DNA of 63,678 nucleotides, filler included, from Stramenopiles sp. TOSAG23-6 (GCA_900128565.1; 11 parts of 11 records of this genome joined end to end with filler, not necessarily neighbours in it), one strand, 5' to 3'. Counted from the whole stretch's first letter, positions 12,371-43,805 are shown. Numbers and translations are program-made. The notes: a model not told the origin generated them from the letters alone.

Positions 12371-12621
12371 GTATGTTTTATTTTTTTTTTATCAAAAAAA
12401 TCCAATTTTTTTTTTTATAGTAAATTTTGTACCTAACAATTTTTTTTAGATTTTTTTTGAAATATTNNNNNNNNNNNNNNNNNNNNNNNNNNNNNNNNNN
12501 NNNNNNNNNNTTAATTAATTAANNNNNNNNNNNNNNNNNNNNNNNNNNNNNNNNNNNNNNNNNNNNGTACGAAATTTTGTACCTAACGAAAAACAATTTG
12601 AAATATTTTTCCAAAATACAT

Positions 12622-15600: not shown

Positions 15601-16286
15601 ATAATATACACTACACAGAAGATAAATCGTTTGAATCATTATTACATTTGGAGAAAAGAAAACTTGACGAATTACAAAAACGTCAACAATCGTATAAAAA
15701 GTTTTGTGAAGTAATAGACAAAGATAATTTAGACTTTCAGTTTAAAAACAGAAACAAAAATGATAATTTTGGAGAAAAACGTTCTCGCATTGATGATCAA
15801 TTATTTCTAGAATCAGTATCTAACAACGACATATCAAACAAAATAATATCAGTAAATAGTAATAATTTAGATTCTGATGGGAGCAACGGAAAAATTGCAT
15901 TAATGAATGCATCTCGTTTAAGGAGGTTCTATGAATTTAGGTGCCCTTCAAAAATCGGTGCTGTCGAAAAAATTCTCAAGAATAATATCGGTAAAGAAAA
16001 AGCTTTATTTTCAAAGGTTTTACGAAAATATGGAAATGTATCAAAAACTAATGAGAGGCTACAAACAGTGCAAGAAGTCATTGAATCATATGTTAGTAAA
16101 TTACCTCATGGTGTTGTGAAAAGAGCTTTAATAGACAGGGGTAATGAAGTGCTAGGTACAGAGACACAAAATCGCTCTACTCTGAAGAATACGTTACAAA
16201 ATCAAATAAATCTAGGAAAAATTGACGAAACACTTTTAGTTGCTATACTAGGTAAAAAACAATTCAAGTTATTTCGTCCATACTAA
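12622..16286 (+). CDS. Large low-complexity/coiled-coil protein of unknown function; terminal exon, 5'-truncated
   Basis: 1212-aa ORF that stays open upstream to a family intron end at 12621. Confidence 0.75.
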
Positions 16287-16414
16287 CATTAAATTAGTAG
16301 TCGTAGACTTACAAAAAGTGAAATATTAAAAAATTTTACAAATAAATGAATTCCAAGAATTTCAAATTTCAAATTTGGTGTTATGACATGAACTAGTCAG
16401 ACATTCATTCGTTC

Positions 16415-17314
16415 ATGACCATTAGGTCAGAGTCCAAATCCATGCGAAGAAGTCTCCCATATATTTTCTCTAGAATGCAATCCACGAATACGTCGACATG
16501 GACTCCTCCATCAAGTCTAGAAACAGTGTCGAATTACTCGTCATTGTTATCACTTGTGTTGTCTGCTCGCCCAATAACACCTGGTGCTGTCGTTGTATGT
16601 CCCCGACGACCTGGAATTTCGCGACTCTTGGATCTCTCTGATGATGAGTTGTTAGATATGTTTTCTACAGCACGGACTATTGTGACTTCAATGAATAACT
16701 CTATAGGTGATGCTTCAGCAGAAGGATTTAATCTCGCACTGAAAGATTCTCATGGTGCATTTTCACAGTTGCACCTTCACGTTGTCCCTCGGCGCAGTAA
16801 TGATTTTCCCGAGAATGACGAAATTTATAACCGTATTGATAAATGGCATCCAGATCTAGGAAAATGCAATATGAATAGTTTACCCCTCGATATTCCTGAA
16901 GATAGTGCTCGAACTGGGCGAACGGAAGAATCAATGGCAGAGGAAGCCATGAAATACCGATGTGCTCAACCAGGGAATACGACATGTGAAGAATTTCCAA
17001 AAGATGGAAAAGTTACTTTTGGACAACTTTCCATAGCATGCACACAAGTATTCTGGAATTCAGAGTTGTCCTTTGCTTTCGTGAATAAGTATCCTCTAGT
17101 AAATGGGCATACTTTAGTATCTCCAAGACGTCCCGTCGCTCGACTCAAAGATCTCACCACAGAAGAAGCAGATGATCTTTGGCGTAGTGTCAAAAAGGTA
17201 CAAAGTTTATTATCAACTATTTATGGCTCTGATAATTTCACGACTGGAATTCAAGATGGTCCAGTTTCTGGTCAAAGTGTATTTCATGTTCATGTCCATA
17301 TCCTGCCAATGTAA
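16415..17314 (+). CDS. Tandem double-HIT, FHIT-like dinucleoside polyphosphate hydrolase
   Basis: Two HIT domains: QLHLHVVPRR.NDF..NDEIY, and AFVNKYPLVNGHTLVSP...IQDGPVSGQSVFHVHVHILP. Confidence 0.85.
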   Translation: MTIRSESKSMRRSLPYIFSRMQSTNTSTWTPPSSLETVSNYSSLLSLVLSARPITPGAVVVCPRRPGISRLLDLSDDELLDMFSTARTIVTSMNNSIGDASAEGFNLALKDSHGAFSQLHLHVVPRRSNDFPENDEIYNRIDKWHPDLGKCNMNSLPLDIPEDSARTGRTEESMAEEAMKYRCAQPGNTTCEEFPKDGKVTFGQLSIACTQVFWNSELSFAFVNKYPLVNGHTLVSPRRPVARLKDLTTEEADDLWRSVKKVQSLLSTIYGSDNFTTGIQDGPVSGQSVFHVHVHILPM

Positions 17315-17486
17315 TTCAAAGTTTTAAATAAAAAATAAATATGTCGTAATAATTTATAAAAAATTTAAATTCGGAAGAAATTAAAAAATATAAAATATAG
17401 AAAAGTGAAAAAAATATTATGATTTACACAAACTATTTTATACTACTATATTCTTTATATACTATAACTATGTACTACTGTGATAT

Positions 17487-18542
17487 CTACATGTTGCTCG
17501 AATGACTAGAACTCATCACTGTTGCTGCTTCTAATCTACTTTCTTCATGACTCTCTGGTATTACTGCTACTCCTTCACCTTTACTACCTGAACGATATTG
17601 TAGATATTCACGAACGGATTGGATAGTTGCAGAAGGAGTATTTGATCCTTCAACTGCTATGTTTGCATCTTTAGTATTATCATTACGTAATGCAATGCAA
17701 ACATCTTCATTTGGATCTGTAAAAAATGCAAGTGATGTTCGAGTTAGAGTAGATGCTTCTTCAAGCTCTTCCTTTGATATTTTTGTTCCTTTTGAATCCG
17801 GACCTGCGACTCTGTGTATTGTTGCCTTCAATTCACCATTGGTCCATTTTGAAAGTAAACTACCTATATTCACTACTAATGCACCTTCACGATGAGGTAC
17901 TGGCACCCAAGTATTATCGTTTGCAAGTGCTTCTAATCCAACTGTTCCATCATGTATTGTGAAAAAAATATTTCAATTTTTTTTGTTAGGTACAAATTTT
18001 GGTACGAAAAAATAAATTTGAAATTCATGATGTAAAAATACAGTAGTCAGTAACGTTATACTTCCATAATCACTATGTTCTTTACACCTATTTCCCCTTG
18101 ATACATGTTCATTTTTATATGGTAAATATTGAATTAGTCTAAGCGTGTTGTTTTTTTCACTATGAAGTTTTACAAAATGCTCCTTATCATCTAGACCTAA
18201 GCCATGAGCTATACATCGTAATAATTGCTCCTTTGTTTTGTCAAGTGCTTTACAATATAGCGACAAAGTTGAAGTTGGATCAGCGTCTAATACAGCTTGT
18301 TCACCAATTAACATTGTATATTGCTTTGGATCGGTTGGGTGATCTTCAATCTTCACACAAGTTGGGGGAACTGCAAACACATTTGATGCAGCATTGACTG
18401 CATCTCTTTGCAACTGAGGAGTGAGAAAAGGAGATTCTAACAACAAAAAACCTGACGTTCGAAGAGCATTGCAACAAGCATCTGCAACAACGTCTATTTC
18501 GCCATCCTCCAAGGGAAGACGTACAATGGGAACAAACGACAT
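17487..18542 (-). CDS. 2-oxoglutarate/Fe(II) dioxygenase (IPNS/DIOX family), intron 17952-18041
   Basis: LRLIQY...EHSDYGSITLLTT|DGTVGLE...VVNIGSLLSKWTNG...ATIHRV...RTSLAFF. Confidence 0.9.
17952..18041 (-). mobile_element. Repeated intron family copy (GTATT...AATACAT)
   Basis: Removal restores the HxDxGxxTLLxxDxxxGL spacing exactly. Confidence 0.85.
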
Positions 18543-18897
18543 TCTATATAGAAATGCAATAAATGACTTTACTATGAAAATAATAATGTGNCCGCGANCC
18601 ATTTCCATTTCGATTTTGAATCGAGGATTTCGTGTGATCGATCGGAGATTTTTGTATTCATTGATTTTTTGAGATGATTTCTTTCGAGAGACTCGTGTCG
18701 TGTNCGTGTTACTCACAGTGTGAACAGAAACACAATTAGGACNNNNNNNNNNNNNNNNNNNNNNNNNNNNNNNNNNNNNNNNNNNNTTAATTAATTAANN
18801 NNNNNNNNNNNNNNNNNNNNNNNNNNNNNNNNNNNNNNNNNNGTACGAAATTTTGTACCTAACGAAAAACAATTTGAAATATTTTTCCAAAATACAT

Positions 18898-21800
18898 TTG
18901 CAGCAGTAGAAATTGAAAAAGAGATGGAATCTCTCACTGTAAATCTTCATCGAATTGTACCTGAAGCTTCAGAAAAACAAGTACAACATACACTAAATCA
19001 GTATTGTGTTGGTTTGAATAGTGATGGGAGTGCTCGAAGTCGTACTGGGTTTCCGAAAGCTATTAAAGCCCTAAAAAATGAAATTTTACGTGTAAAGATG
19101 GAAAGTATAGATGATGACTCTTCTCGTTCGAGTAGCAATGAAAATGATTCCATTCGTTCAAGTAGTGTTGAATACAGTTCGTCAAGTACAGAAAGTAAAT
19201 CAAACAATATTGAAGATAAATTTGGAAGAATTTTAGAGGAAAGGAGACAGAAAAAACGTATTCGACTGAAACAAATGGAAGATGAACGATTGCGAGTACA
19301 ACAAATTGAACAAGAAAAAATGATTTCACGAAAAGTTAAAGGATTACTCGTGAAATTAAATTTACCCTCCGAAATGGTAAACACAATTATAGAAGATAAA
19401 GAATTTAAGAATGCCGCACTTGCAAAGTTGCAACTACAGGACCCTGCTGGATTAGCACAGCTTATTCAAGGCAAAATTGCCCAGGTAAATAGTATTCGAT
19501 ATGGTGGTAATGGGGGTGGTGCAATCGGTGGTGTTATGAGTGCAATGGGTGCAATAGGTGGAATGCCAATGTCTCCTATGGGAATGAGCCCACATAATGT
19601 ACCAAGAAACGTTGATGCACTTTCATTACTCTCCAAAGAAATGCCAAGTTTACCTGGCTTAGCCAATGTGGTAATGCAACAGCCAGTAGATGTTAAAGAA
19701 AAAATATCGTCAGATACAACAGCAAAACAACAGACGGGTAAGTTAGATGTTAAAACATTATCGCCAAAAACATCGTCAAATAAATCAACTTCAAATACAA
19801 TAGAGAAGAAAAATACATCAAATAAAATAAGTGAGAGAGATATTGCTCTTCGTAAACGTCTTGCGGAAGAAGCAGCATTAAATGGTAACCCCTTCCCCGA
19901 AAGTATTACCCAAAACAGTAATTTGAAATTAAACATTACCGTAAATAGTTTGGCAAATTCATCAAAACCATACCCCGCGCCTGCAATTCCTGAACAATTA
20001 CTTAAAGAAAAAAACTTACGACAAAAAGAGTTACGCCAGCGAATTGCAGAACGAAGAAAACTCAATAAACTCGTTACTGAAAAAGCCACAGCAAATGGAG
20101 ACGTCAAAGATAAAAGTACTGAAGTATCTAAAACGTTTAATACATGGGGTCAACCTTTAATAGATGTAGAAGCAAAACGTAAAGAGGAGTTAAATAAAAA
20201 TCATCATAGAAATAAACTAAAAGGTACACCGATTACTAGTATGCAAATGGAAGAGCAATTAAGAAGCGAAATAAAGGATAACACTCGTGAACTACTATCA
20301 TCTGTACGCGATACTATACCCAAAAGTGTATTTAAACCTGTGCCTGTAAAAACTGTTCGTTTTCAAGACAATATAGTACAGGAAGCAAGTAATATATTAC
20401 CATCAAATATATCATCTAGTAGTAGCAGCGCTCTTCTTCATGAAAGAACGCGTATGACAATGCTTCGCCAAGAAGAAGCAGTCCAACGCCAAAGATCACA
20501 TTTTGATAGTATGAAAAAAAACAAACGAAAGACTCGTGAACGGTATAGTTTTTGGTGGAGATTGATTGGAGTTGACTCAAATTCAAGTGAACAACTTCAA
20601 CGTGAACAACAGGAGCATTTACGCCCAGAGATTGAAGATCTTCTGGCTAGAGAATGCACCACTTGTCTTATCGATTCTTGGAATTGTTATGATACTGATG
20701 GTGTTGAAGGAATAGCAAATAATGTAATTCCAGATTTGTGTGAGAGTACTTTACACAATATAAAGATGGCAATTGCAAACAAATATGATTGGGGTGACAC
20801 GAGTAAGAACATTACAACAGCAAGTGTTGAAAAGATTGTGGAGTCGATTTTTGACGCGCCTGATGATTTGTTGACATATATGACTGCATATTTTATATCA
20901 TCATCTGAAACAAATTGCGGGGTTTTGAGTAAGCAATCTTTCTTACGATACTTTAATGCGCACTTACATTTAAACGAAACCGAAAAAGTGGATAGTTCAA
21001 ATAATAATGATAAACAGAGGAAAGATAGCCACGTTAGTACATCATTAAAATCATTGTTTTCTGTTGGAGATAGTGTTTTGTACACTGATTCTAATGACGC
21101 TGTTTTCAATGCCACTATTAAAGAGAAACATCTAGATTCCTGTACTAAAAAAGAAGGAATAGAAGAAGGGGCGTATTACACATTGTCTTTGCCAAATGGG
21201 CGTGAGAGACAAACTTTAGAAGATCGAATATCCGTCATTAAAAACACGCCAAAAATTTCTCAATTAGTTACAAACAAACCAAGCAAAAAAATGCGACGGG
21301 AAAAGCAAGCATCTGCATTAAGTGCATTGTGGAACGAATTAGATGAATTAGCTGCAATGTCTTCGCCAAGTATGTTACAAGCAAATGATGCAGATGACGA
21401 CAGTAATAATAGGAAGCAATGGAAAAATTGCGTTGATGAATGCATAACTCAAATCAATAATAATATTGATGATGAGAAATATTCTTCAAATGAGAGTGCT
21501 ATTCATAATGGTGCAAAAGTAGGAAATTCTGACAGTTCTGATTCAAATCTAAAACAAGATCAATCCGATGGTATTCGACGAGGTTCAGGATACTCTGCAG
21601 CAAAGATATACAGGAATAAGATAAAATTGAAAGGTCAACTTCAAAAAAATAAGAAAACAAAGAAGAAACGAGGCAAAAGTAGAAAAGTAGAACATCAAAA
21701 GCAACATCGAAAACAAGATCAGTATCCAGCAAAGCTATCTGGGAAACTTAGTAAAGCTATATTTAAAAAAGATATAGAACCGCAGAATATAAATAAACGA

Positions 21801-22562
21801 TATTCTACTACACCACAAGAAAGTATAAATCCTAAGAGTATTACCAAAATGATTCCAGAGAACACTTTGATAAATAATAATATACACTACACAGAAGATA
21901 AATCGTTTGAATCATTATTACATTTGGAGAAAAGAAAACTTGACGAATTACAAAAACGTCAACAATCGTATAAAAAGTTTTGTGAAGTAATAGACAAAGA
22001 TAATTTAGACTTTCAGTTTAAAAACAGAAACAAAAATGATAATTTTGGAGAAAAACGTTCTCGCATTGATGATCAATTATTTCTAGAATCAGTATCTAAC
22101 AACGACATATCAAACAAAATAATATCAGTAAATAGTAATAATTTAGATTCTGATGGGAGCAACGGAAAAATTGCATTAATGAATGCATCTCGTTTAAGGA
22201 GGTTCTATGAATTTAGGTGCCCTTCAAAAATCGGTGCTGTCGAAAAAATTCTCAAGAATAATATCGGTAAAGAAAAAGCTTTATTTTCAAAGGTTTTACG
22301 AAAATATGGAAATGTATCAAAAACTAATGAGAGGCTACAAACAGTGCAAGAAGTCATTGAATCATATGTTAGTAAATTACCTCATGGTGTTGTGAAAAGA
22401 GCTTTAATAGACAGGGGTAATGAAGTGCTAGGTACAGAGACACAAAATCGCTCTACTCTGAAGAATACGTTACAAAATCAAATAAATCTAGGAAAAATTG
22501 ACGAAACACTTTTAGTTGCTATACTAGGTAAAAAACAATTCAAGTTATTTCGTCCATACTAA
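18898..22562 (+). CDS. Duplicate of the large unknown protein (12622-16286)
   Basis: Identical 1212-aa ORF. Confidence 0.7.
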
Positions 22563-22690
22563 CATTAAATTAGTAGTCGTAGACTTACAAAAAGTGAAAT
22601 ATTAAAAAATTTTACAAATAAATGAATTCCAAGAATTTCAAATTTCAAATTTGGTGTTATGACATGAACTAGTCAGACATTCATTCGTTC

Positions 22691-23590
22691 ATGACCATTA
22701 GGTCAGAGTCCAAATCCATGCGAAGAAGTCTCCCATATATTTTCTCTAGAATGCAATCCACGAATACGTCGACATGGACTCCTCCATCAAGTCTAGAAAC
22801 AGTGTCGAATTACTCGTCATTGTTATCACTTGTGTTGTCTGCTCGCCCAATAACACCTGGTGCTGTCGTTGTATGTCCCCGACGACCTGGAATTTCGCGA
22901 CTCTTGGATCTCTCTGATGATGAGTTGTTAGATATGTTTTCTACAGCACGGACTATTGTGACTTCAATGAATAACTCTATAGGTGATGCTTCAGCAGAAG
23001 GATTTAATCTCGCACTGAAAGATTCTCATGGTGCATTTTCACAGTTGCACCTTCACGTTGTCCCTCGGCGCAGTAATGATTTTCCCGAGAATGACGAAAT
23101 TTATAACCGTATTGATAAATGGCATCCAGATCTAGGAAAATGCAATATGAATAGTTTACCCCTCGATATTCCTGAAGATAGTGCTCGAACTGGGCGAACG
23201 GAAGAATCAATGGCAGAGGAAGCCATGAAATACCGATGTGCTCAACCAGGGAATACGACATGTGAAGAATTTCCAAAAGATGGAAAAGTTACTTTTGGAC
23301 AACTTTCCATAGCATGCACACAAGTATTCTGGAATTCAGAGTTGTCCTTTGCTTTCGTGAATAAGTATCCTCTAGTAAATGGGCATACTTTAGTATCTCC
23401 AAGACGTCCCGTCGCTCGACTCAAAGATCTCACCACAGAAGAAGCAGATGATCTTTGGCGTAGTGTCAAAAAGGTACAAAGTTTATTATCAACTATTTAT
23501 GGCTCTGATAATTTCACGACTGGAATTCAAGATGGTCCAGTTTCTGGTCAAAGTGTATTTCATGTTCATGTCCATATCCTGCCAATGTAA
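22691..23590 (+). CDS. Duplicate of the double-HIT FHIT-like protein
   Basis: Identical to 16415-17314. Confidence 0.8.
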   Translation: MTIRSESKSMRRSLPYIFSRMQSTNTSTWTPPSSLETVSNYSSLLSLVLSARPITPGAVVVCPRRPGISRLLDLSDDELLDMFSTARTIVTSMNNSIGDASAEGFNLALKDSHGAFSQLHLHVVPRRSNDFPENDEIYNRIDKWHPDLGKCNMNSLPLDIPEDSARTGRTEESMAEEAMKYRCAQPGNTTCEEFPKDGKVTFGQLSIACTQVFWNSELSFAFVNKYPLVNGHTLVSPRRPVARLKDLTTEEADDLWRSVKKVQSLLSTIYGSDNFTTGIQDGPVSGQSVFHVHVHILPM

Positions 23591-23762
23591 TTCAAAGTTT
23601 TAAATAAAAAATAAATATGTCGTAATAATTTATAAAAAATTTAAATTCGGAAGAAATTAAAAAATATAAAATATAGAAAAGTGAAAAAAATATTATGATT
23701 TACACAAACTATTTTATACTACTATATTCTTTATATACTATAACTATGTACTACTGTGATAT

Positions 23763-24818
23763 CTACATGTTGCTCGAATGACTAGAACTCATCACTGTTG
23801 CTGCTTCTAATCTACTTTCTTCATGACTCTCTGGTATTACTGCTACTCCTTCACCTTTACTACCTGAACGATATTGTAGATATTCACGAACGGATTGGAT
23901 AGTTGCAGAAGGAGTATTTGATCCTTCAACTGCTATGTTTGCATCTTTAGTATTATCATTACGTAATGCAATGCAAACATCTTCATTTGGATCTGTAAAA
24001 AATGCAAGTGATGTTCGAGTTAGAGTAGATGCTTCTTCAAGCTCTTCCTTTGATATTTTTGTTCCTTTTGAATCCGGACCTGCGACTCTGTGTATTGTTG
24101 CCTTCAATTCACCATTGGTCCATTTTGAAAGTAAACTACCTATATTCACTACTAATGCACCTTCACGATGAGGTACTGGCACCCAAGTATTATCGTTTGC
24201 AAGTGCTTCTAATCCAACTGTTCCATCATGTATTGTGAAAAAAATATTTCAATTTTTTTTGTTAGGTACAAATTTTGGTACGAAAAAATAAATTTGAAAT
24301 TCATGATGTAAAAATACAGTAGTCAGTAACGTTATACTTCCATAATCACTATGTTCTTTACACCTATTTCCCCTTGATACATGTTCATTTTTATATGGTA
24401 AATATTGAATTAGTCTAAGCGTGTTGTTTTTTTCACTATGAAGTTTTACAAAATGCTCCTTATCATCTAGACCTAAGCCATGAGCTATACATCGTAATAA
24501 TTGCTCCTTTGTTTTGTCAAGTGCTTTACAATATAGCGACAAAGTTGAAGTTGGATCAGCGTCTAATACAGCTTGTTCACCAATTAACATTGTATATTGC
24601 TTTGGATCGGTTGGGTGATCTTCAATCTTCACACAAGTTGGGGGAACTGCAAACACATTTGATGCAGCATTGACTGCATCTCTTTGCAACTGAGGAGTGA
24701 GAAAAGGAGATTCTAACAACAAAAAACCTGACGTTCGAAGAGCATTGCAACAAGCATCTGCAACAACGTCTATTTCGCCATCCTCCAAGGGAAGACGTAC
24801 AATGGGAACAAACGACAT
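23763..24818 (-). CDS. Duplicate of the 2OG-Fe(II) dioxygenase (intron 24228-24317)
   Basis: Identical to 17487-18542. Confidence 0.85.
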
Positions 24819-25187
24819 TCTATATAGAAATGCAATAAATGACTTTACTATGAAAATAATAATGTGNCCGCGANCCATTTCCATTTCGATTTTGAATCGA
24901 GGATTTCGTGTGATCGATCGGAGATTTTTGTATTCATTGATTTTTTGAGATGATTTCTTTCGAGAGACTCGTGTCGTGTNCGTGTTACTCACAGTGTGAA
25001 CAGAAACACAATTAGGACNNNNNNNNNNNNNNNNNNNNNNNNNNNNNNNNNNNNNNNNNNNNTTAATTAATTAANNNNNNNNNNNNNNNNNNNNNNNNNN
25101 NNNNNNNNNNNNNNNNNNTACGAAAATTTGTACCTAACGAATTTTTTTTTTTTCGGTAAAAAAAACAAATATTTTTTCACAATACAT

Positions 25188-25949
25188 ACCTCCTTTTGCA
25201 ACTCATCAAGTTGCTGCTGCAGGTTTAGTATTGAATAATCATGGAGAATTATTGGTTTGTAAAGAATCGAATCATCCGAAAAACAAAGCTAGATGGAAGT
25301 TACCCGGTGGAATGCTTGATTTGGGAGAGGATGTATGTTTTATTTTTTTTCAAATTTGAGTTTTTTTTCGTACGAAAGTTTGTACCTAACGATTTTTTTT
25401 GAAATATTTTTCCAAAATACATATAGGCTCTGGAGCTGTCAGGGAGGTGTTTGAAGAGACTGGTATATCTACTAATTTTCAATCTATCCTCGCTTTTTGG
25501 CAGAGACATGGCCTAGTTCATGGAAAATCCGATATTTATGCTGTGACTAGACTATCTTTGAAAGATGATGTTGGAGATAGTCGCCCAATTATAAATATTT
25601 CAGATGAACTTTCTGATTGTAAGAACGTTTCCATCATGAATTTCAAATTTAGTTTTTTTTTTCATACGAAATTTTGTACCTAACAAAAAACATTTGAAAT
25701 ATTTTTTCACAATACATGTGGATGGAGATCGGCGAATTGGCATCAACGTCCACCCATCCGTTAGTGCTCTCATTGTGTAATATGTATAGTGTCAAAAACA
25801 AATATGACAAACCAATTCCCCCAAAGATTCAAATGTACGCACATGACCTTCCAATGGTTCAAGGTAAAGACACATTTACCACATTCTTTCCTAGTTCTGA
25901 GAATAATGAATATTGGAATAATGTTCAAGAAATACGAAATCTAAAATAA
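25188..25949 (+). CDS. NUDT6-like Nudix hydrolase, 5'-truncated (introns 25333-25422, 25623-25717)
   Basis: PPFATHQVAAAG...WKLPGGMLDLGED|IGSGAVREVFEETGI is an intact GX5EX7REUXEEXGU box after splicing. Confidence 0.9.
25333..25422 (+). mobile_element. Repeated intron family copy (GT-AT) inside the Nudix box
   Basis: Removing exactly 90 nt gives the X7 spacing. The AG four nt downstream would frameshift. Confidence 0.9.
25623..25717 (+). mobile_element. Repeated intron family copy with GA donor (GAACG...AATACAT)
   Basis: AA|G TGG gives ELSDCKWME. GAACGTTTCCATC aligns with the family GTACGTTTTCAT start. Confidence 0.65.
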
Positions 25950-25981
25950 ATAATGACGTTTTGATTTTTGATATTTTAATT

Positions 25982-28900
25982 TTAAATTTGTAAAGCAAAT
26001 CCACATGATAAATTAGAACTTGCCGATGCTAATATATTTGGGGTTTTCATATTTTTTAATCCAAATGCTTCGATCGCTGCTCCATTTACGGAAACTCCAG
26101 CATTACGTAAATCACAATACGTTTCCAATGCATTTATCGCATTCCGACGTGAAAGAGATAAGGAGCAACGATTAAGATTATTGAAGTCTTTTTGAAATGC
26201 AAGGAACAAGTTGCTATTAAGAAAAGCTGAATAGAAATCGTACCACGGAGAAGTTTTCCTTATACGGTTTAGATTTGTCGAAGCCTCTGTAGAAAACAAC
26301 TGTCTCTGACCTTGATATGAAGAAATACTAATCTTCGAAAGTAAAACTTGGTACATTTCAAAAAACGTTGCTCTTATATACGGTATTACATTACAAGAGC
26401 CTCCGTCATCATCATTATTATTTGAGCTAACTTTATCGGTATTCAGCAACCGTGGCATAAATGATATCAAATGTTCTTCACTGACACTCATCAGATGGTC
26501 GGGAAAAGGTTTGAATATGTAGACTGGAGTTGATGTTAATATATTCATCGCCTCTGGTTTATTTTGCCGTTTTTCTTGTGTGATTTCATTGACATAACAA
26601 AATTCTTCAGTTGATGTTGCAAATATCTTCCAAGGACCTCTATATGATCTTACTAAAACATTACTTGATACTTCGTTTGAGTATATATTAATTAAAGGGG
26701 CCGATGGTACTATTAAATTACCTCCTCTTGGTTTCCCATTATTAATTCTATTGTTGGGGCAAATACCAATGATACAGCATTGTAACGGGTAATTCTTCTG
26801 CAGCAACTGATTTATAACTGTATCTTCCGTACTATGGACACCTAAGATGTATTGTGCCCCTCGAGTATTTTCTGTACTCATAAAATGACACAACTGATCA
26901 ATAGATAGAGTTGGGAGGTACTTTGTTGTTTTTCCAGTGATATTGATATCAAATCTCAATTCCGGAGAATACATTGGAACTAATAGAGATATTATCGCTT
27001 CCATTATTGGTAGTAGTTCGTGGCATTTTTCGTTCACAATAATTACAGTTCGTTGTTGTAAAATACCACCAATTATTGTAATGACTTCATTTGGCGTGAA
27101 ATAAGAAAAAAGCAGTTGAATACTAAGAAGATCTAAAGGGAAAATTTGCATATTATCTAAACAGTTTGAGGAAAACTGTGGATTCATTTTAGACAATGAA
27201 TCGTCTCTAGGTAGTCTATAACAAAGCTTTCGTGTTATGTTTTCGATATTTTGTTTAGCGAAATACGCTGAGCGCATTTTTTCCAGAATAAATCTGTGTA
27301 CTGTAAATAATGGAAATCGAGATATCAAGCATAATGTCCGGCGACCCTTGCACATACGTTTCTCTTCCTTTATATCTCCTGCTAGTTCAGTGGTTAATGT
27401 GTTTCTTTCAATTAATGGAACGATGCCGTGTGTATGTATTTTGGAAAAATATTTCAAAAAAAAACCGTTAGGTACAAACTTTCGTACGAAAAAAAATCGA
27501 AATTGAAAAAAAATTAAACATACATTTGCAAATGCTTCGATACTTCTAGCAAATTTGTTGCTTCGAATTTGATTGATGCATTGAATGATATTATTTGTTC
27601 CTATTGTATTGCTATGCTGAGACAACATAATCTCAAATGAAAATACTATTTTTCCATATTTTTCTAATGGCTCGTGAAGTATCACTTGGTTTTTCGCGAA
27701 AGCCCATTCACCTTCAATTACACCTAATCGTACTAAATTTAATGTAAAAGCATCCTGTAATATTGTCGATCCCCGCCAACGCTTCAAACCACCTTGCAAA
27801 CCCCCAATAACAATAGTACCTACAAGTCCTATATAACTGTTGGTTTCAGCATGTAACTTTAATGATCCTAAGCTAGTCGCAGAACAATAATAAACATATG
27901 AATTCGGATCGTTTACGTCACCTTGTTCCGCCGCACGAAATGAATGGAACTGTGGTTGTTTATTTTGATTATTGTTTGCATCATAATCTTCATATCTATC
28001 AAAATATTTTGGGAGTTTGGGTATTAGTCTAGTGATTGAAAAAGTATCAAATGTTAAGTCTTTATGATTATCGGAAGGATATCGCTTTACACCATGTTTA
28101 GCCCATAATTTGATAAATTCGGGTAAACCGATGAACCCTTGTTTATTTACATCAAATTGCGACATTTCTCGCTCTATTTGCGCACGATTCATCAAAGAAC
28201 CCGAAAGATCCTTAATTAATGGTTGCAAATCTGCCTTGCTCATCATACCATGTCCTGAGCTATCATACTGGTGAAAGAGATCTTCCATCGGGCCACCTAA
28301 ACCAACATTATGTATAAGATCATTATTTGGTTCTACCGGTATTTCATTCCGATCTGTATTGGGCGGCAGCCATGTGATTAACAAAGCATAATCAAAGAAC
28401 CTAAATAATGGTGTCTTTTGCATCTCTATTTCAGACTTGAATCCTTGCTTCTCTGCATACCGCAAAGCTACATTACTATTAATACATGGACAGTAAACAG
28501 TTCTTTTAGATCCAACAGCTAAAAGTAATTTAGAACATTCTAGCGAATTCGCACATAACGCAATATCGATAGCATTATTACCCATTTCATTTTTTGCATC
28601 AAGCATTTCTATTTGAGTAACCTTGTTGGCTTCGAGAATAATTTTGCATATTGCAGGATTACCAACTTTACAAGAATCCCAAAGTTCCATAGCAAAGAGG
28701 TCCGGGTTGTTGTTGTGAAATTCGATATTCTTATACAAGAATTGTTCAAAATCTGAAGCCTGGCCTCCATAAATCATTTCTCTCGCTTCCATTACCATTG
28801 TTACAAACGACGCGCTTATTGTTTTGGGTTTTGGAGTCAATTTTGTTTCTTTTCTTTTTTTCTTTTGTTTTGGCCTGGGCTTATATTTTTTTTTCCTTGT

Positions 28901-29845
28901 TTTTTCTTCTACCATTTTATCTGTTTGAGCAGGTTTCGTGAAACAACATAAACAACGACAGAACTTAGCTAAACCTTTTCTCTTTGATTGTTTTTTGGTG
29001 ATCTTTTTCTGCCCTTCATTTATATTTTTTTCCACTGCTTTCGCGCTTTTATCAGTTGAGATTGCTTTTTCACCAGTCGAAGGTTTTCTTTTGACAGCAG
29101 TTGAGGGTTTAGTAGGGAAAATTGCTATTGGTTTAAGATTATAATCACTAGGCAGTTGTTTTTTCTTTGCATCTTTTCTTTTATTTTCATCCAGTAACGC
29201 TGTCTCTTCGTCAGATGAAGTTGTTTTTTCATCTGAGGTTGCTTCTTCCTCGAAAGGTTCTTTATCAGTAGTGGTTAGTACATCAATTTCTTTATTGATA
29301 TATTTTGTTTTTTCATCAATGTTTTCATCCTCAATCGAAGTCTTTCTCTCCTCCTCCTCGATCAATCCTGATTCTTCATCAATTACAGTCGATGAGAATT
29401 CTTCCTCAATTGAAGTTGTTTTTTCATCCTCTTCAATAGAAGACGTTTTTTCATCGTCCCCAATCGAGTTGGTGACTGTAGGACTATCTACCGTGGTTGA
29501 ATCAACCGACAATTTATCACTATCAGTGGATTCCGTATCTGTATCTGTATCAGAAGAGGACGAATCGGTATCTTCAATTGAACTGATTACAGGACGCTTT
29601 CGTTGAAGCTGCCCCCACAGCTTCTCCTTCATTGTTCCGAACTTGCTCGTGGTTTCATGTCTACGTTTGCGGCGTCTCCTTCTTTTTTTCTTTTTCCTCT
29701 TTTTTCTCCTTCTCTTTGAGCTATGTTCTCTCTTTGAGCTATGTTCTCTTTTAGAACGTTCCTCTTTATCTTTCCGATGTCGCCGCGTGTGCTTGTGGTG
29801 GCCGTGGTGGTGGTGCTCCTCCTCAACCATTATTTTTATAGCCAA
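25982..29845 (-). CDS. Multidomain protein: K/R- and acidic-rich N-terminus, ankyrin repeat, EF-hand pair, DENN-like region, WW-like insert; in-frame intron 27434-27523
   Basis: GNNAIDIAL (ANK); DSSGHGMMSKADL and DVNKQGFIGLPEF (EF-hands); LCLISRFPLF...QYILGVH (DENN); WKIFATSTEEFCYVNEITQE (WW-like). Confidence 0.75.
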   Translation of the reverse strand: MAIKIMVEEEHHHHGHHKHTRRHRKDKEERSKREHSSKREHSSKRRRKKRKKKKRRRRRKRRHETTSKFGTMKEKLWGQLQRKRPVISSIEDTDSSSSDTDTDTESTDSDKLSVDSTTVDSPTVTNSIGDDEKTSSIEEDEKTTSIEEEFSSTVIDEESGLIEEEERKTSIEDENIDEKTKYINKEIDVLTTTDKEPFEEEATSDEKTTSSDEETALLDENKRKDAKKKQLPSDYNLKPIAIFPTKPSTAVKRKPSTGEKAISTDKSAKAVEKNINEGQKKITKKQSKRKGLAKFCRCLCCFTKPAQTDKMVEEKTRKKKYKPRPKQKKKRKETKLTPKPKTISASFVTMVMEAREMIYGGQASDFEQFLYKNIEFHNNNPDLFAMELWDSCKVGNPAICKIILEANKVTQIEMLDAKNEMGNNAIDIALCANSLECSKLLLAVGSKRTVYCPCINSNVALRYAEKQGFKSEIEMQKTPLFRFFDYALLITWLPPNTDRNEIPVEPNNDLIHNVGLGGPMEDLFHQYDSSGHGMMSKADLQPLIKDLSGSLMNRAQIEREMSQFDVNKQGFIGLPEFIKLWAKHGVKRYPSDNHKDLTFDTFSITRLIPKLPKYFDRYEDYDANNNQNKQPQFHSFRAAEQGDVNDPNSYVYYCSATSLGSLKLHAETNSYIGLVGTIVIGGLQGGLKRWRGSTILQDAFTLNLVRLGVIEGEWAFAKNQVILHEPLEKYGKIVFSFEIMLSQHSNTIGTNNIIQCINQIRSNKFARSIEAFANVCLIFFQFRFFFVRKFVPNGFFLKYFSKIHTHGIVPLIERNTLTTELAGDIKEEKRMCKGRRTLCLISRFPLFTVHRFILEKMRSAYFAKQNIENITRKLCYRLPRDDSLSKMNPQFSSNCLDNMQIFPLDLLSIQLLFSYFTPNEVITIIGGILQQRTVIIVNEKCHELLPIMEAIISLLVPMYSPELRFDINITGKTTKYLPTLSIDQLCHFMSTENTRGAQYILGVHSTEDTVINQLLQKNYPLQCCIIGICPNNRINNGKPRGGNLIVPSAPLINIYSNEVSSNVLVRSYRGPWKIFATSTEEFCYVNEITQEKRQNKPEAMNILTSTPVYIFKPFPDHLMSVSEEHLISFMPRLLNTDKVSSNNNDDDGGSCNVIPYIRATFFEMYQVLLSKISISSYQGQRQLFSTEASTNLNRIRKTSPWYDFYSAFLNSNLFLAFQKDFNNLNRCSLSLSRRNAINALETYCDLRNAGVSVNGAAIEAFGLKNMKTPNILASASSNLSCGFALQI
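27434..27523 (-). mobile_element. Repeated intron family copy (GT-AT), 90 nt, stop-free
   Basis: Read through in the ORF track as VCLIFFQFRFFFVRKFVPNGFFLKYFSKIH. Confidence 0.85.
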
Positions 29846-30241
29846 AGATAATACGGAAGATAATCAAATTACTTTGATATTCTCAAGATAATACCAAATA
29901 TGCGCAGTACGGCATTATTTCATATTCGGGGTATATTCGGCGTATATCACAATGTAATCCCTTTATATAATTTGAGCTGATAATGGAAATAGTTTTGGGG
30001 AAAGTAGAGCTGTCTTTCTCTAATAGAAGTACGAGTAGTGTACTATATATACTACTACGTAGTAGCCGTATCTTAAAAGATCACTGATCGGTTATTTGAT
30101 TTCTGCCAACACACGAACGAAAACTGTCAAAACCAAAACAAAAATCAGACCTGCCTGGCTGTCCAGAGCAAAACACTATTCCCTTTTTTAGGGTGAGAAT
30201 AGTTTCAACTACTTGAAATAAAGCTCAAATCCTTTTATAAA

Positions 30242-31144
30242 ATGAAGAGGTTCCTTTGTCCAGCCAAAAAATCAGTGTCAAAGAGGACAAAGAGCTGCTT
30301 AACTTCCAAAGGATCCATCGCTAAAGTATTTGATGCTGCTGCAGGACTTTACGTTGGGCCTGAGAAGTGGTCCGTTGAATCAGGTATACAACACTTGCTA
30401 GAAGTAGACGAAACGCGTTGGAAACCAATTATAGAAAAATTTGGAATTCCAAAACAAGTTCATAGGTCATTCTTATCCAAGTCTAACGACATTTCCATTG
30501 ACTCAGATTTTTTATTTGCTAGCTTACTCAAAACAATCATCTATCAACAACTATCTGGAAAGTCTGCGGCGTCTATTTTTAACAAGTTAAATATTTCTCT
30601 TGGAGTAAATTCAACCCAAACTCTTTCTCCGAAGTTAGTAAATAATGCTATATTTACGGAGCAAATTATAGAGGGTAAGAAAAAAGTTCTGGTTAATGGC
30701 TCTATTGTTGGTATCAGTAGACAAAAACGAGACTATATTTTGTCTCTCTCAGAACATTTTAATGATGAAGAAAAATTGAAAAATATTGATGTAACCAAGT
30801 TGTCTCCTGAAATGATAAAATCGAAACTGATCAATATAAAAGGTGTTGGGGAGTGGAGTGTTGAAATGCTTCTGATATTTACATTGTATCGTGGAGATGT
30901 GTTTTCTCCTGGTGACTTGGCATTGAGAAAAGCTACAGCTCTCATCTTGGGAAAACCCATTGATACTTGGTCTAAAAGTTCAAAGTCAAATAGAAATGTA
31001 GTAGCTGATGTCGCAANNNNNNNNNNNNNNNNNNNNNNNNNNNNNNNNNNNNNNNNNNNNNNNNNNNNNNNNNNATTGCTACGAACTTATGGACAGTACA
31101 AAGAAATAAAGAAATTCACTTACTATTTGAAAGATTTGGTTTAG
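30242..31144 (+). CDS. DNA-3-methyladenine glycosylase II (AlkA/Mag1, HhH-GPD)
   Basis: FASLLKTIIYQQLSGKSAASI...GISRQKRDYI...LINIKGVGEWSVEMLLIF...DVFSPGDLALRK. A gap lies near the C-terminus. Confidence 0.9.
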   Translation: MKRFLCPAKKSVSKRTKSCLTSKGSIAKVFDAAAGLYVGPEKWSVESGIQHLLEVDETRWKPIIEKFGIPKQVHRSFLSKSNDISIDSDFLFASLLKTIIYQQLSGKSAASIFNKLNISLGVNSTQTLSPKLVNNAIFTEQIIEGKKKVLVNGSIVGISRQKRDYILSLSEHFNDEEKLKNIDVTKLSPEMIKSKLINIKGVGEWSVEMLLIFTLYRGDVFSPGDLALRKATALILGKPIDTWSKSSKSNRNVVADVAXXXXXXXXXXXXXXXXXXXXLLRTYGQYKEIKKFTYYLKDLV

Positions 31145-31387
31145 TATTCAATTTGTCAACTTTTCAAACGTTTTATTTGTAATCAAAGTTTTTTTTTACA
31201 AGATAATATTATATAATTTTCATTCCTTACATTATGCTATTTCACTACCAGCAACCTTATTGATTTCTGCTTTTAATAATTTACTCGNNNNNNNNNNNNN
31301 NNNNNNNNNNNNNNNNNNNNNNNNNNNNNNNTTAATTAATTAANNNNNNNNNNNNNNNNNNNNNNNNNNNNNNNNNNNNNNNNNNNN

Positions 31388-33181: not shown

Positions 33182-35362
33182 TTGAAATGCAATTTTCGTA
33201 AATCTCTGTATGGAATGCAGGACAATTGTTCGACTAGCGAAAAATACGAAGAAATGCAACCTAAAGAAAATAGATTTTCACAAAAGGATGAACCTAACGA
33301 AAATAATTTCTCACAAAAGGAAGACATGCAACCTAACGAAGATAGTTTCTTAGATAAAGTCTTAGATAAACCTAACGAAGATAAAGTCGTAGATACAGGA
33401 GTCGTTGATATCGATGAAGTACAAGGGCATGATACTGATATAGATACTGATACTGATACAGATACTGATATAGATACGGATCCAGAACATCTCGCTCATG
33501 ATATCCAAAGAGATTCAGAAGATGAATTATGGTATTGGGCAAAGCAGCAAGCTGAAGACCAAGCTAAAATAGAAAAGCAACGCTTAGAGCTAGAAGATAA
33601 AAATCAAACACAAGACAGAGAAGTTACAAACGAATCAGAGAAACAGATACGCCTTGTTGAAAATGATAATATAAATATGATACATTCATTCGAAAAACGC
33701 CTTGTTGAAAATGATAGTATAAATATGATACATTCATTCGAAAAACGCCTTGTTGAAAATGATAATATAAATATGATACATTCATTCGAAATAGATGAAC
33801 TGAGCAATGATACACAGCTAAACGATCCACTCAAAGTAGATGCATTGGATCTCGTAGAACGTAAAAAATATACAGAAAATAATACTACAGAGACCATTAT
33901 TAACACAACTGATATACATTCATCTATATATGAAATAGATGACAAGCATACGAATAAAGATGAAATAGATAGGGAGTATAACCCTAACCCTTATAAAGAT
34001 ATGAGTCCTTTCTCTACTTTTGATATAGTAAATAGTAGATGTAGACCAGATAGAGAAATTAAGTTAGGGTTAGGGTTAGAAAATGATGCCAAACGTAGAG
34101 ACTGTTTTGGTTTAGGAATGAGACAAATTGTACGGATGAAAAAAGAAGAAGAACGAATGAACTCAATAGGAGGACGAGGTTTTAGTCAATATATGAATAA
34201 GTATTTGCAAATGAAAAATAATATTGCCCAAAATAATCAAATTCACCAAAATTATCAAAGTAACAAAAGTAACAAAAATAACATTATAATTCAGAGAAAG
34301 CCAAAATATAAAAATGAAATTATGTCCAGGGTTAAGGTTAGTGATGTACAACGTGATGGTGACCTTAACCCTAATGAAATTTCAAATATTCAAAAAAATA
34401 CATTCACTACCACACTGTTGACACGTAACCCTAATGAAATTCCATTACATCAAAAAAAACAAAAAAAACAAAAAATACAAAAAATACAAAAAATACAAAA
34501 ATATCACCAAAATAAAATACTGGAAAGAAAAACAAATACAAAAAGACAAACTCAAAAAAATAAAGAAGAAATTTGGTTAAGAAAACAAGCTCAGCGCATT
34601 GTCCGTCTTAGAATGATGGAAGATGCTCAACAAAGAAGTATGAACAATGTTCTAAAAACACGAAATCAACGGGTTAGTCGTTTAGTCGCTGCGAATAGAA
34701 AAAAAAAAGTTCAAGTTGCAAAAGTTAAACAGAAGAGAGAAGATGAAAATGCGAAAAAATATTTCAATATGCATCAAAGCCTTTATGGGGATTCATCATC
34801 TATTGAAGCTCGTAGAAATTTCATAAAACTACAAAAGTCAAATAAATGTACAAAACAACGCATGTACGTTTTCATGATAAATTTCAAATATTTTTTTTTT
34901 TGGTTTTCGTACGAAATTCCGTACCTAACATTTTTTTTCTACAATATTTTTTCACAATACATGATACGTGAAGAACGAGCGGCCAACGCTAAACGGAATC
35001 GATTAGCACAACATGCGAGACGTCAAGCAGAAGTTTCGCGTCATCTTACAGAAAAAGAAAAGTATCGGAATTTATTGCATGAAATGAAAAATCGCATGGA
35101 AAAAAGACAGGAAAGACAAAATGCAGTCTCTAGAAGAATTAGTAGAGAAATTGGCGAAAGACGAAAAATACTAAGAATTCGTTCGACGCCTGGACCGGGT
35201 ATCGGAAACAATTCACAACGACAATATAGAAAATTACCATCCCGTAGTATTGCAACTACCTGGAAAAGTACCTTAACCTCTGGAAGTTATAGTCATGAAA
35301 CAGCTAAGCGAGATAAAGGTTGGTTGTACACTAATCCAAAATGCCGAAGAAGACTTGCGTAA
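33182..35362 (+). CDS. Low-complexity coiled-coil protein; in-frame intron 34864-34962
   Basis: 726-aa ORF containing a 99-nt family intron read through as YVFMINFK...FSQYM. The start is probably ATG 33215. Confidence 0.65.
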   Translation: MKCNFRKSLYGMQDNCSTSEKYEEMQPKENRFSQKDEPNENNFSQKEDMQPNEDSFLDKVLDKPNEDKVVDTGVVDIDEVQGHDTDIDTDTDTDTDIDTDPEHLAHDIQRDSEDELWYWAKQQAEDQAKIEKQRLELEDKNQTQDREVTNESEKQIRLVENDNINMIHSFEKRLVENDSINMIHSFEKRLVENDNINMIHSFEIDELSNDTQLNDPLKVDALDLVERKKYTENNTTETIINTTDIHSSIYEIDDKHTNKDEIDREYNPNPYKDMSPFSTFDIVNSRCRPDREIKLGLGLENDAKRRDCFGLGMRQIVRMKKEEERMNSIGGRGFSQYMNKYLQMKNNIAQNNQIHQNYQSNKSNKNNIIIQRKPKYKNEIMSRVKVSDVQRDGDLNPNEISNIQKNTFTTTLLTRNPNEIPLHQKKQKKQKIQKIQKIQKYHQNKILERKTNTKRQTQKNKEEIWLRKQAQRIVRLRMMEDAQQRSMNNVLKTRNQRVSRLVAANRKKKVQVAKVKQKREDENAKKYFNMHQSLYGDSSSIEARRNFIKLQKSNKCTKQRMYVFMINFKYFFFWFSYEIPYLTFFFYNIFSQYMIREERAANAKRNRLAQHARRQAEVSRHLTEKEKYRNLLHEMKNRMEKRQERQNAVSRRISREIGERRKILRIRSTPGPGIGNNSQRQYRKLPSRSIATTWKSTLTSGSYSHETAKRDKGWLYTNPKCRRRLA
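33649..33790 (+). repeat. 48-bp coding tandem repeat, 3 copies (RLVENDNINMIHSFEK)
   Basis: Three near-identical CGCCTTGTTGAAAATGATAATATAAATATGATACATTCATTCGAAAAA units. Confidence 0.9.
34864..34962 (+). mobile_element. Repeated intron family copy (GT-AT), 99 nt
   Basis: AT|GTACG...CAATACAT|G. Confidence 0.85.
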
Positions 35363-41497: not shown

Positions 41498-43805
41498 ATG
41501 GCTGCAAAGCATGGTAATGAGGCTGATTTAAGTGAACCATCCACAAATATTGTTGTTTGTGATAATGGAACTGGCTTTGTACGTTTTTATAACCGTGTTT
41601 GTCCCCCCCTTTATGAATTGTAGTACTATTTCGTCTCTTTGTTACATTAGTTTCACTGTTTAGTTTCCATTTGACTTGTCAACAGTGTACTAACATCTTC
41701 TTTCAATATATAATAACACAAACTTTACAGGTTAAATGCGGATACGCTGGTGATAACTTTCCTCGCCATGAATTTGCATCAATGGTAGGTCGTCCAATGC
41801 TTCGCGCTGAAGAAGGAGATATTGGTGATATCAAATTAAAAGATGTCATGGTCGGCGACGAAGCAGAAAAAGCCAGAAAGTATTTAGAAATTCGATATCC
41901 TGTTGATGAAGGTATTGTAAAACATTGGGAAGATATGGAACATTTGTACGACTACACCTTTCATGATAAACTTAACCTTCCAAGCGTTTGTCAAGGCAAT
42001 CGAATTATGCTGACGGAAGCTCCACTCAATCCAAAAAAAAATAAGGAAAAATTTTGTGAGTATATGTTTGAAAAATATGGATTTGCTAGTATGCAAGTAC
42101 AAACTCAAGCAATGCTTACTTTATATGCACAAGGTTTATTAACTGGTGTTGTTTTGGATTCTGGTGATGGTGTTACTCATGTGGTTGCGGTGTATGATGG
42201 TTATGTCCCTCAACAACTTACTCGTATGTTTTTTTTTTTTTGGGGTTTTGGTACGAAATTTCATACCTAACAAATTTTCAAAATTTTTTATTTTTTTTTC
42301 AAAATTTTATTTTTTTTTCAATTTTGTTTTTATTCTCTCTATAATAATATTTTTTTTTGTTTGTACAACTAACAATATTCATTCATTTTGATAGACTATT
42401 CTACACTAAAGGACGTCTTAATTTAGCTGGTCGGCACGTTACCCGGCACCTCATTGAACAATTACAAATGAGAGGATATGTACGTTTTTTTTTTTTTTTT
42501 TGCATAATTTTTTTTTCGTACGTAATTTTGTACCTAACCAAAAAAAAAAAAAATTGTACAAAAAAAATATTTTTTCATAATATATGCTTTTAATAGCACA
42601 GCTGATTTTGAAACGGTTCGTCGAGTAAAGGAAGATATATGTTATGTAGCATATGATGTAAAAAAAGAAAGACAATTGGCTGAAGAGACGACTGCATGTA
42701 TGTTATTATCATTTTATCATTTATATTTTTTTATATTTTTGAAATTTTTGAAAATTTTTTTTTTGAAATTTTTAAAATTTTAAAATTTTTTTGAATTTTT
42801 GGATGAATCAAATTCGTTTTTTTTTCATCTATCCAATTTCAAGGATCCAAAATTTTAAACACCATTCAATACAATCCTCAACAAATATATACTTTAGAGT
42901 TTTTTTATTTTAGATTCAAAAAAAAAACGTAAATGAATATTTTCATGATTCATTTCAAATTAATTTCAATTTTTTTTTTTTTTTTTTTTCATACGAAATT
43001 TCATACCTAACAAAAAAAAATGTCCAAAAAAAAAAAAAATATTTTTTCACAGTATTGTAATGAAAGAGTATAAATTACCAGATGGACGAATCATTACTGC
43101 TGGGCGAGAACGATTTGAAGTAGCTGAATTGATGTTTACACCTGAAAATGGAGGTGTTACTGGAGATGGTGTGTCTGATATGATGTATGTTTTTTTTTTT
43201 GATTTCGTGTTTTTTTTTAAATATTTTTTTCATACGAAATTTTGTACGTAACAAAAAATAATAATATTGTACAATATTTTTCAAAATACATATTTAATAT
43301 GATTCAATCAGCGGAAATTGATTTAAGAATGGATCTGTATAAACATATTGTGTTATCAGGCGGATCTACTATGTACGTTATTATTATTATTATAATTGTT
43401 TTTTTCATATATTTTTTTGTACAAAAAATTTCAAAAAAAAGTTAAATTTTTTTTTTTTTTTAGATTTTTTTTTTTTTTAGAATTTTTTTTTTTTTTTGTA
43501 TACCAAATAATATTTCTAAAAAAATGTAATACTATACATTATTTTTAAACAATACATGTTTCCTGGTTTTCCAACACGTGTTGAAAAAGATATGAAAACG
43601 CGATATTTAAATGAAATTTTGCATGGTGATAAAAGGAAATTGAGTAAATTCAGATTAGGTATCGAAGATCCACCACGAAGGAAAAATATGTACGTTTTTT
43701 TATTTCATGATGAATTTCAAATTTTTTTTTTTTTTTTTGTATGAAATTTTCGTACTAAAAAAAAAAATTTTTTATTTTTTTTTTTTTTTTACCCGAAATT
43801 TTTTT
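41498..43805 (+). CDS. ARP2: Actin-related protein 2, 7 introns, 3'-truncated
   Basis: [70 protein letters not shown]. Introns: 41579-41730 (GT-AG), 42224-42411 (GT-AG), 42480-42585 (GT-AT), 42698-43057 (GT-TG), 43185-43291 (GT-AT), 43373-43557 (GT-AT), and one starting at 43690. Confidence 0.95.

Follow-up and report, generated by a model that had tools for sequence, protein, structure and literature searches.

Background

Introners, as described in Micromonas, in Aureococcus and in many aquatic eukaryotes, have AG acceptors (Gozashti et al. 2022, PMC9860276; reviewed in PMC11282704); the words 'MAST' and 'stramenopile' are absent from the main text of PMC9860276. Fritillaria borealis and F. 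pellucida have abundant, lineage-specific, non-canonical U2 introns, which are attributed to miniature transposons (PMC13326754; Henriet et al. 2019). According to PMC13326754, these introns vary greatly, AG is the first dinucleotide in most of them, their 3' ends are AT or AC within a YAY triplet, the U-rich tract is retained, and both a duplication of U2AF and a modification of snRNA are described. The introners or non-canonical introns of the marine protist Amoebophrya carry inverted repeats at their ends (8-20 nt, forming hairpins) and short direct repeats across their junctions, with no consistent terminal dinucleotides (PMC7789003). The nonconventional introns known from euglenids and from two groups of diplonemids, hemistasiids and eupelagonemids, have no conserved borders, and their GC-rich ends pair strongly; a transposon origin has been proposed for these euglenid and diplonemid introns (PMC12621601). 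The main texts of three MAST genome papers (PMC5778133, PMC8163842 and PMC12614181) do not mention non-canonical or repeated introns, the word 'intron' being used twice in that of PMC5778133, both times in a methodological sense. We found no description of a GT...AT intron family in the literature searched.

Here we analyze a 90-nt insert in a Nudix gene and the repeat family to which it belongs. The insert is probably a copy of a high-copy, introner-like family that a U2-type spliceosome would cut as GT...YAT, here at positions 25333-25422. Like introners, the family consists of many similar short introns in unrelated genes, in sense orientation, with a higher AT content than the exons and short inverted repeats at the ends; one dinucleotide recurs at both junctions, possibly through duplication of a target site, the coding frame is restored on precise removal (in 19 to 20 of 23 introns and in the product of the Arp2 gene), and a GA donor variant (25623-25717) has its like in some introner families. 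Unlike introners, which are canonical GY-AG, these introns end in AT in 19 of 23 cases and in AG in one, and 15 of the 23 have no in-frame canonical option. By its predicted boundaries the family would be a variant of introners with non-AG acceptors.

The remaining systems each share part of this description. With Fritillaria the family has in common abundant, lineage-specific introns of transposon type, a retained U-rich tract and a counterpart of the YAY triplet (CAT or TAT at all 19 AT ends, with a triplet of like form often found before the donor); it differs in its GT donors (22 of 23, GTAYGT), its conserved branch block and its protist host. As in Amoebophrya, repeated non-canonical introns with inverted repeats at their ends and direct repeats at their junctions are found in a marine protist, whereas this family has conserved donor and branch motifs, and its terminal stem, of only 5-6 bp, is not significant. 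Non-GT-AG boundaries are deduced from gene structure, as they are for the nonconventional introns of euglenids and diplonemids, from which the family is set apart by a conserved GT donor, CTAAC, AT-rich ends and a fold with a z score of -1.0.

The window and its host

The window (the whole stretch of DNA that was analyzed, 63,678 nucleotides) is made up of eleven contigs of 6.1-6.2 kb, in order of length and chained by N-TTAATTAATTAA-N linkers (6186-6285, 12467-12566 and so on). Some pieces are duplicated (12567-18742 is identical to 18843-25018, and 43906-50060 to both 50161-56315 and 56416-62570), so that raw motif counts are inflated. The GC content is about 33%, with the lowest value (0.22) at 42000-44000, because several long T-rich introns crowd the Arp2 gene there. 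The genes are eukaryotic (Nudix, DENN/EF-hand, HhH-GPD, SPRY, acetyl-CoA transporter, HIT, 2OG oxygenase, actin-related protein, TALE homeobox and Ccdc124), and their long open frames translate correctly with the standard code. The nearest labelled proteins are EukProt gene models (GSMAST32.ASY1.ANO1..., P0094 and P0108), the best named relatives of Arp2 are oomycete and Incisomonas proteins, and DNA of the window is present in two small runs of a coded organism and in several seawater metagenomes. This suggests that the host is an AT-rich marine stramenopile, with an assembly of MAST-3 type. A diplonemid or an appendicularian host, which the work on non-canonical introns had brought to mind, was rejected in view of the MAST label and of these Arp2 relatives. 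An Rfam scan of the window gave zero hits.

A 90-nt insert in a Nudix gene

The sequence that the first-pass annotation had quoted for 25321-25470 is present exactly as given there. The features of the gene, including the predicted introns, are as follows.

25119..25187, + strand: 3' part of a family intron whose 5' side is lost at the contig start; it ends in ...CACAATACAT and adjoins the Nudix exon (nhmmer model 41-97, E 4.5e-8)
25188 (25189 in the Pfam match)..25332, + strand: Nudix exon ending in ...GGMLDLGED (Pfam NUDIX positions 2-43, E 3e-7)
25333..25422, + strand: 90-nt family intron in the family register GTATGT...ATACAT (best nhmmer match, E 1.4e-16, model 1-97; frames continuous)
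25380..25390, + strand: conserved core TTGTACCTAAC with the presumed branch site CTAAC; the 3' end of the intron follows 32 nt downstream
25423..25622 (25629 in the Pfam match), + strand: Nudix exon running from IGSGAVREVFEETGI... to ...DELSDCK (Pfam NUDIX 47-79; homologues P0095-P0097)
25623..25717, + strand: 95-nt family intron, the second complete one in this gene, GAACGT...ATACAT (nhmmer match 25640-25717; frame kept)
25718..25949, + strand: last Nudix exon with the stop codon (open reading frame ends at 25949; identical to the C-terminal part of P0094)
25337..25426, + strand: alternative, canonical GT-AG intron, 90 nt, GTTTTA...ATATAG (translation; public gene model P0094; offsets of +4 at the 5' and +4 at the 3' end, net 0)

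Pfam NUDIX positions 2-43 fall in the first exon and residues 4-36 of the second exon align with positions 47-79, which places residue 1 of the second exon at profile position 44; the profile is therefore unbroken only if exactly 90 nt are removed. An excised length of exactly 90 nt had been claimed before, and the Pfam profile, continuous at no other length, bears it out. If the insert at 25333-25422 is retained, an in-frame stop results. A cut in the family register joins ...GED to IGSGAV.... Because AT stands at 25331-25332 and again at 25421-25422, three cuts, namely GT-AT, TG-CA (25332-25421) and AT-AC (25331-25420), yield one mRNA, and it was rightly noted in the first-pass annotation that AT repeated at both junctions leaves this copy alone unable to separate GT-AT from AT-AC.

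A segment of equal length could, however, be removed in a canonical way. The second GT of GTATGTTTT, at 25337, forms with the AG at 25426 a canonical 90-nt intron that leaves the frame and the spacing of the Nudix box intact (GEDVCSGAVREV...). The cut at 25337-25426 gives GEDVCSGAV and the cut at 25333-25422 gives GEDIGSGAV, a difference of two residues (V-C in place of I-G), and it is the V-C register that the public gene model P0094 reads. The Nudix box (GX5EX7REUXEEXGU, PF00293) is satisfied under both 90-nt registers, so that the box alone does not fix the non-AG cut at 25333-25422. The first-pass annotation had held that the box rules out an AG acceptor, which fails on GT25337...AG25426 (90 nt, in frame, box kept); its further point, that the AG at 25425-25426 breaks the frame, holds when this AG is paired with GT25333 (94 nt) and not when it is paired with GT25337 (90 nt). 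The locus had also been presented as the cleanest evidence for removal without AG. It is in fact the sole one of 23 introns in which a canonical cut would leave the net length unchanged, and hence among the least clean for that claim.

We located 113 Nudix boxes in 152 homologues and counted the residues at the two affected positions: at the second variable position of the box I occurs in 30 and V in 10, and at the third G occurs in 37 and C in one, giving odds of about 100 to 1 for I-G over V-C if independence of the positions is naively assumed. The non-AG register is favored indirectly at the Nudix locus by these homologue residues, by the family register with its GTATGT donor and by the apparent bypassing elsewhere of a downstream AG.

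At the neighboring intron (25623-25717) GA stands where the family alignment puts the donor GT. Homologues have two residues before a conserved W-M/L, which fits the ...DCKWME... that results from removal of 25623-25717; the canonical option taken in P0094 deletes W-M-E. A search of metagenomes with the second Nudix exon returned 10 loci (best identities 48-70%, over parts of the exon), none near enough to inform the junction. Among the full relatives found with this exon in the representative library, P0094 aside, identity was at most about 64%, and they were employed for residue statistics only.

Three metatranscriptome runs and one DNA run were compared with 25119-31287. There was no RNA contig over the Nudix exons, the joint 25332>25423 was not found among the 15 joints listed for the four runs, and the RNA contigs over introns of this region were only element-derived, from many loci. 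We infer splicing at the Nudix locus from the DNA, and likewise removal at the RNA level, the spliceosome as its agent, the branch A and the exact cut among the three equivalent ones.

The intron family

A family profile (nhmmer) built from 13 copies gave 34 matches with E < 1e-3 in the roughly 44 kb that remain when duplicated pieces are set aside, and the core TTGTACCTAAC occurs 40 times with at most one mismatch, compared with 0.88 expected (a count that takes in the duplicated contigs). Copies are found in, among others, Nudix, DENN, Arp2, acetyl-CoA transporter, 2OG oxygenase and homeobox genes. The pairwise identity among them has a median of 0.70 and a maximum of 0.93. From 5' to 3' the family consensus consists of GTAYGTTTT, a T-rich stretch, CGTACGAAATTTTGTACCTAAC (with CTAAC), a second T-rich stretch and GAAATATTTTTCCAAAATACAT; the conserved 3' block is ATATTTTTYCAMAATACAT, ending in ACAT, and ATGTAT/ATACAT forms a short terminal inverted repeat. 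A second subfamily has GTAYGTTTTCATCATGAATTTCAAATTT at its 5' end and ...TTTCACAATACAT at its 3' end. The copy most similar to the Nudix intron lies in the DENN/EF-hand gene.

27434..27523, - strand: nearest relative of the Nudix intron, 93% identical, in the DENN/EF-hand gene (open and in frame; no nearby canonical option keeps the exon ends)

Two copies, 27434-27523 (- strand) and 34864-34962 (+ strand), are open and in frame with their host reading frames, and their retention would add 30 or 33 residues and leave the protein unbroken.

Frame restoration and intron ends

For the frame test we took intron ends from the family alignment (several by eye, three with the help of homologues) and took the longest open frames to be coding. 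We excluded the duplicated contigs, any copy truncated by a gap or by the end of a contig, and matches of composite or degenerate structure (9282-9435, 37678-37958, 40232-40292 and 47976-48040), and the final set of 23 introns adds the third intron of the Nudix gene and introns 3 and 5 of Arp2, whose ends were set by eye with homologues. With GT...AT removed, the longest frames on the two sides are joined in 10 of 13, 16 of 20 and 19 of 23 introns in successively larger sets (binomial P for 19 of 23, 1.7e-6 against an expectation of 1/3), and in 20 of 23 with a Pfam-supported frame. Retention would lead to a stop or a frameshift in 21 of the 23. For 15 of 23, a search up to 12 nt from the exon ends, with any internal AG allowed, gave no GT/GC-AG option that is in frame and free of stops. 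Misfits or ambiguous cases are 11941-12041, 47310-47394 (which ends in ACAA) and 12157-12316 (which ends in CAG).

The donor is GT in 22 of the 23 introns. Their 3' ends are AT in 19 (in every case CAT or TAT), TG in two, AG in one and AA in one; CTAAY is present in 20, and the distance from CTAAC to the intron end is about 32-47 nt. Upstream of the donor, AT is found in 15 of 23 (background frequency of AT, 0.10), and the exon ends in T in 19. Cutting as GT-AT is the most uniform reading across copies, with GT at the predicted start in 22, AT at the predicted end in 19 and AT upstream in 15 of the 23. The match of AT flanking 15 donors to AT ending 19 introns is identical across loci, so that a target-site duplication is not separable from an insertion-site or splice-site preference.

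One candidate acceptor was tried and rejected. Use of an AG 10 nt past ACAT at 2385-2474 had rested on the longest frame, and the Pfam match lies in the shorter one (Acatn profile 298-340, E 2.9e-5); the good TTTACAG at this place is thus apparently not used, and with the Pfam frame the intron fits the frame rule. The adjoining 2476-2879 (- strand) is the middle exon of the acetyl-CoA transporter gene, in which the Pfam frame is open for 186 nt only and the long frame has no match. These frames call for a further, unrecognized intron or a frameshift error somewhere from about 2661 to 2879.

Residue-level comparison of the Arp2 gene

The Arp2 gene (41737-43805) has six introns within the contig. 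All junctions within 12 nt were scored against six orthologues, with the following outcome for the first five predicted introns.

42224..42411, + strand: intron 1, canonical GT-AG, 188 nt, with the family 5' half (orthologue scoring; partial nhmmer match 42246-42278)
42480..42585, + strand: intron 2, family, GT...AT or equivalent shifts (...RGY|AFN... gapless against the orthologues)
42698..43057, + strand: intron 3, with a family-type 5' end and 3' block, GT...TG (unique best junction by the sum over six orthologues)
43185..43291, + strand: intron 4, family, GT-AT, TG-CA or AT-AC (...SDM|IFNMI... identical to P0101)
43373..43557, + strand: intron 5, GT...AT (...GGSTM|FPGF... identical to P0101)

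None of the best-scoring junctions of introns 2-5 ends in AG. For intron 5 the closest orthologue gives GT-AT, and the sum over six orthologues prefers a +3/+4 shift, which is also non-AG. The closest orthologue, P0101, is a contiguous open reading frame of 406 amino acids on a 1598-nt contig and is 89% identical, which indicates that it belongs to a relative; two cluster mates are on similarly short contigs, and the other Arp2 proteins found, the public model P0108 aside, are more distant. The Arp2 product obtained under the GT...AT rule has 295 identities with P0101 in 336 columns (88%), with a single one-residue gap away from the junctions, whereas P0108, which forces GT-AG or reads through introns, has 55 gap columns against the same protein. 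In P0108 two conserved stretches are deleted and a T-rich intron is read as protein. The Arp2 gene is the strongest evidence that the family would be removed at non-AG ends. The first-pass claim that the family is excised without AG thus stands on the frames (19 to 20 of 23), on the 15 introns without a canonical option and on the Arp2 junctions, and no longer on the Nudix locus from which it had been argued.

AG acceptors are, on orthologue scoring, also used in this genome, and within the same gene. A GT-AC reading of Arp2 intron 1 was rejected, because the orthologues have a second R, in favor of canonical GT-AG. The acceptor AG of this intron lies 38 nt past the second ACTAAC, and an earlier GATAG is skipped.

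Alternative readings

That the Nudix intron is an ordinary GT-AG intron at 25337-25426, the protein reading GEDVCSGAV and non-AG ends being confined at most to other copies, is unlikely. This cut does remove exactly 90 nt in frame with the box spacing intact, it is the choice of the public gene model P0094, and AG acceptors are predicted elsewhere in the genome (Arp2 intron 1, and the CAG at the family-homologous 3' position of 12157-12316). It requires, however, a weak GTTTTA donor although the family's GTATGT stands four bases upstream, and residues that are rare at the two box positions (V in 10 and C in one of 113, against I in 30 and G in 37). The equivalent +4 shift in Arp2 intron 4 scores lower against the orthologues (396 versus 414), models of the same annotation that were forced to be canonical lose conserved residues elsewhere, and at 2385-2474 the AG 10 nt past ACAT is apparently bypassed.

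It is improbable that the chemical cut giving the identical mRNA is AT-AC (25331-25420) or TG-CA (25332-25421), with the family being one of AT-AC introns, possibly removed by a U12-like system. U12-type introns have the donor RTATCCTT and the branch sequence TCCTTAAC near the acceptor, with a branch-to-acceptor range shorter than the roughly 32-47 nt seen here; the first-pass annotation had taken CCTAAC for a branch site. In AT-AC introns the pairing of a first A with a last C is an established compatible combination, which counts for this reading, as do the AT before GTAYG (15 of 23 against a background of 0.10) and the T with which the exon ends in 19 of 23; 15 of 23 copies can be read as AT-AC, and the three cuts are indistinguishable by product at the Nudix locus and at Arp2 introns 2, 4 and 5. 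The upstream AT is nevertheless missing in eight of 23 introns in which the frame is mostly kept, and GT-TG is the unique best junction of Arp2 intron 3. Against the generally known consensus, the U12 donor RTATCC occurs in none of the 23, nor does CCTTAAY near the 3' end (last 45 nt), and the distance from CTAAC to the intron end is too long for the U12 range.

Removal without a spliceosome, either guided by base pairing of the ends, as proposed for the euglenid and diplonemid introns, or at the DNA level, as in ciliates, is very improbable. The inverted-repeat ends ATGTAT and ATACAT do pair in the minimum-energy fold, and the same register is found in two copies with mutated terminal dinucleotides. 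The fold is, however, no stabler than those of shuffled sequences (z = -1.0; 33 of 200 shuffles as good), and copies with GTAC disrupt the stem with no compensating 3' change, for which reasons we take the inverted repeat to be left over from a transposon and not to guide splicing. The most conserved features of the family are a classical donor and the CTAAC branch motif, and the long open frames, which read correctly in the standard code, count against DNA-based or pairing-based removal alike. The internal eliminated sequences of ciliates are bounded by TA and absent from somatic DNA. Here, by contrast, the junction repeat is AT rather than TA, the family reaches high depth in a DNA metagenome, and an independent contig assembled from metagenomic DNA (X3 record 2, 25677-26524, 0 differences) has the 3' part of the neighboring intron joined to the exon.

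That the element stays in, and that the Nudix gene and others are repeat-disrupted pseudogenes, is scarcely credible: the missing RNA coverage at the Nudix locus and a fragmentary draft assembly with Ns would fit, but all three Nudix exons have open frames with family-typical residues, precise removal restores the frame at 19 to 20 of 23 insertions, and the Arp2 product is 88% identical to its orthologue over five junctions.

Proposed removal and its consequences

The preferred reading, spliceosomal removal as GT...YAT, can be set out as follows. The family would probably have originated as a miniature transposon, each copy of which carries its own putative signals, namely a strong donor GTAYGT, CGTACGAAATTTTGTACCTAAC with CTAAC, a T-rich stretch and ATATTTTTYCAMAATACAT. 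A U2-type spliceosome would excise the element from the pre-mRNA, cutting at the G of GTAYGT and right after the terminal YAT, so that the acceptor would lie about 32-47 nt past the CTAAC branch site; it would apparently be set by its family-homologous position rather than by an AG. The same register fits the two copies that end in TG and the copies with AG in or just past the 3' block. At the Nudix locus 25333-25422 would be taken out, ...GED would be joined to IGSGAV... and the Nudix box would be restored.

We lean slightly towards the wider view that MAST-3-type stramenopiles have thousands of transposon-derived introns with YAT acceptors (occasionally with another dinucleotide), in which a U2-type spliceosome would choose the acceptor by its position in the conserved 3' block beyond CTAAC and nearby AGs would be skipped. 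If this is true, then 3' splice sites independent of AG, which have been documented with RNA so far mainly in Fritillaria, have an independent origin in a protist, which would be a second, unrelated lineage in which a burst of transposons accompanies routine non-AG acceptors, and the choice of 3' splice sites without AG becomes testable in a protist, on a very uniform family of introns. The poor gene prediction in genomes of MAST-3 type would also be explained. Public gene models of this organism are forced onto GT-AG, with the result that conserved residues are deleted or inserted, which probably affects how many genes these uncultured grazers are credited with and which functions are inferred for them.

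Abundance of the element and composite copies

At least eight contig ends lie inside family copies (1, 6286, 12466, 12567, 25119, 37651, 43805 and 43906), so the family seems to interrupt the assembly. The summed contig depth of the element is thousands-fold above that of the flanking single-copy sequence in one DNA run and in three RNA runs; other loci, and perhaps other organisms, contribute to these sums, which therefore yield no copy number. In contigs of the three metatranscriptome runs the element is very abundant relative to the flanking exons at 25325-25736 and 27385-27590; unspliced RNA, the persistence of excised introns or DNA carry-over could account for this.

Some copies depart from the simple arrangement. 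At 12157-12316 (+ strand) parts of the family are mixed with a canonical end, a CAG occupying the family-homologous 3' position. Telomere-like AACCCTAACCCTAA stretches occur near 37934-37990 and 40292-40330 (both - strand), directly upstream of two degenerate family-like copies.
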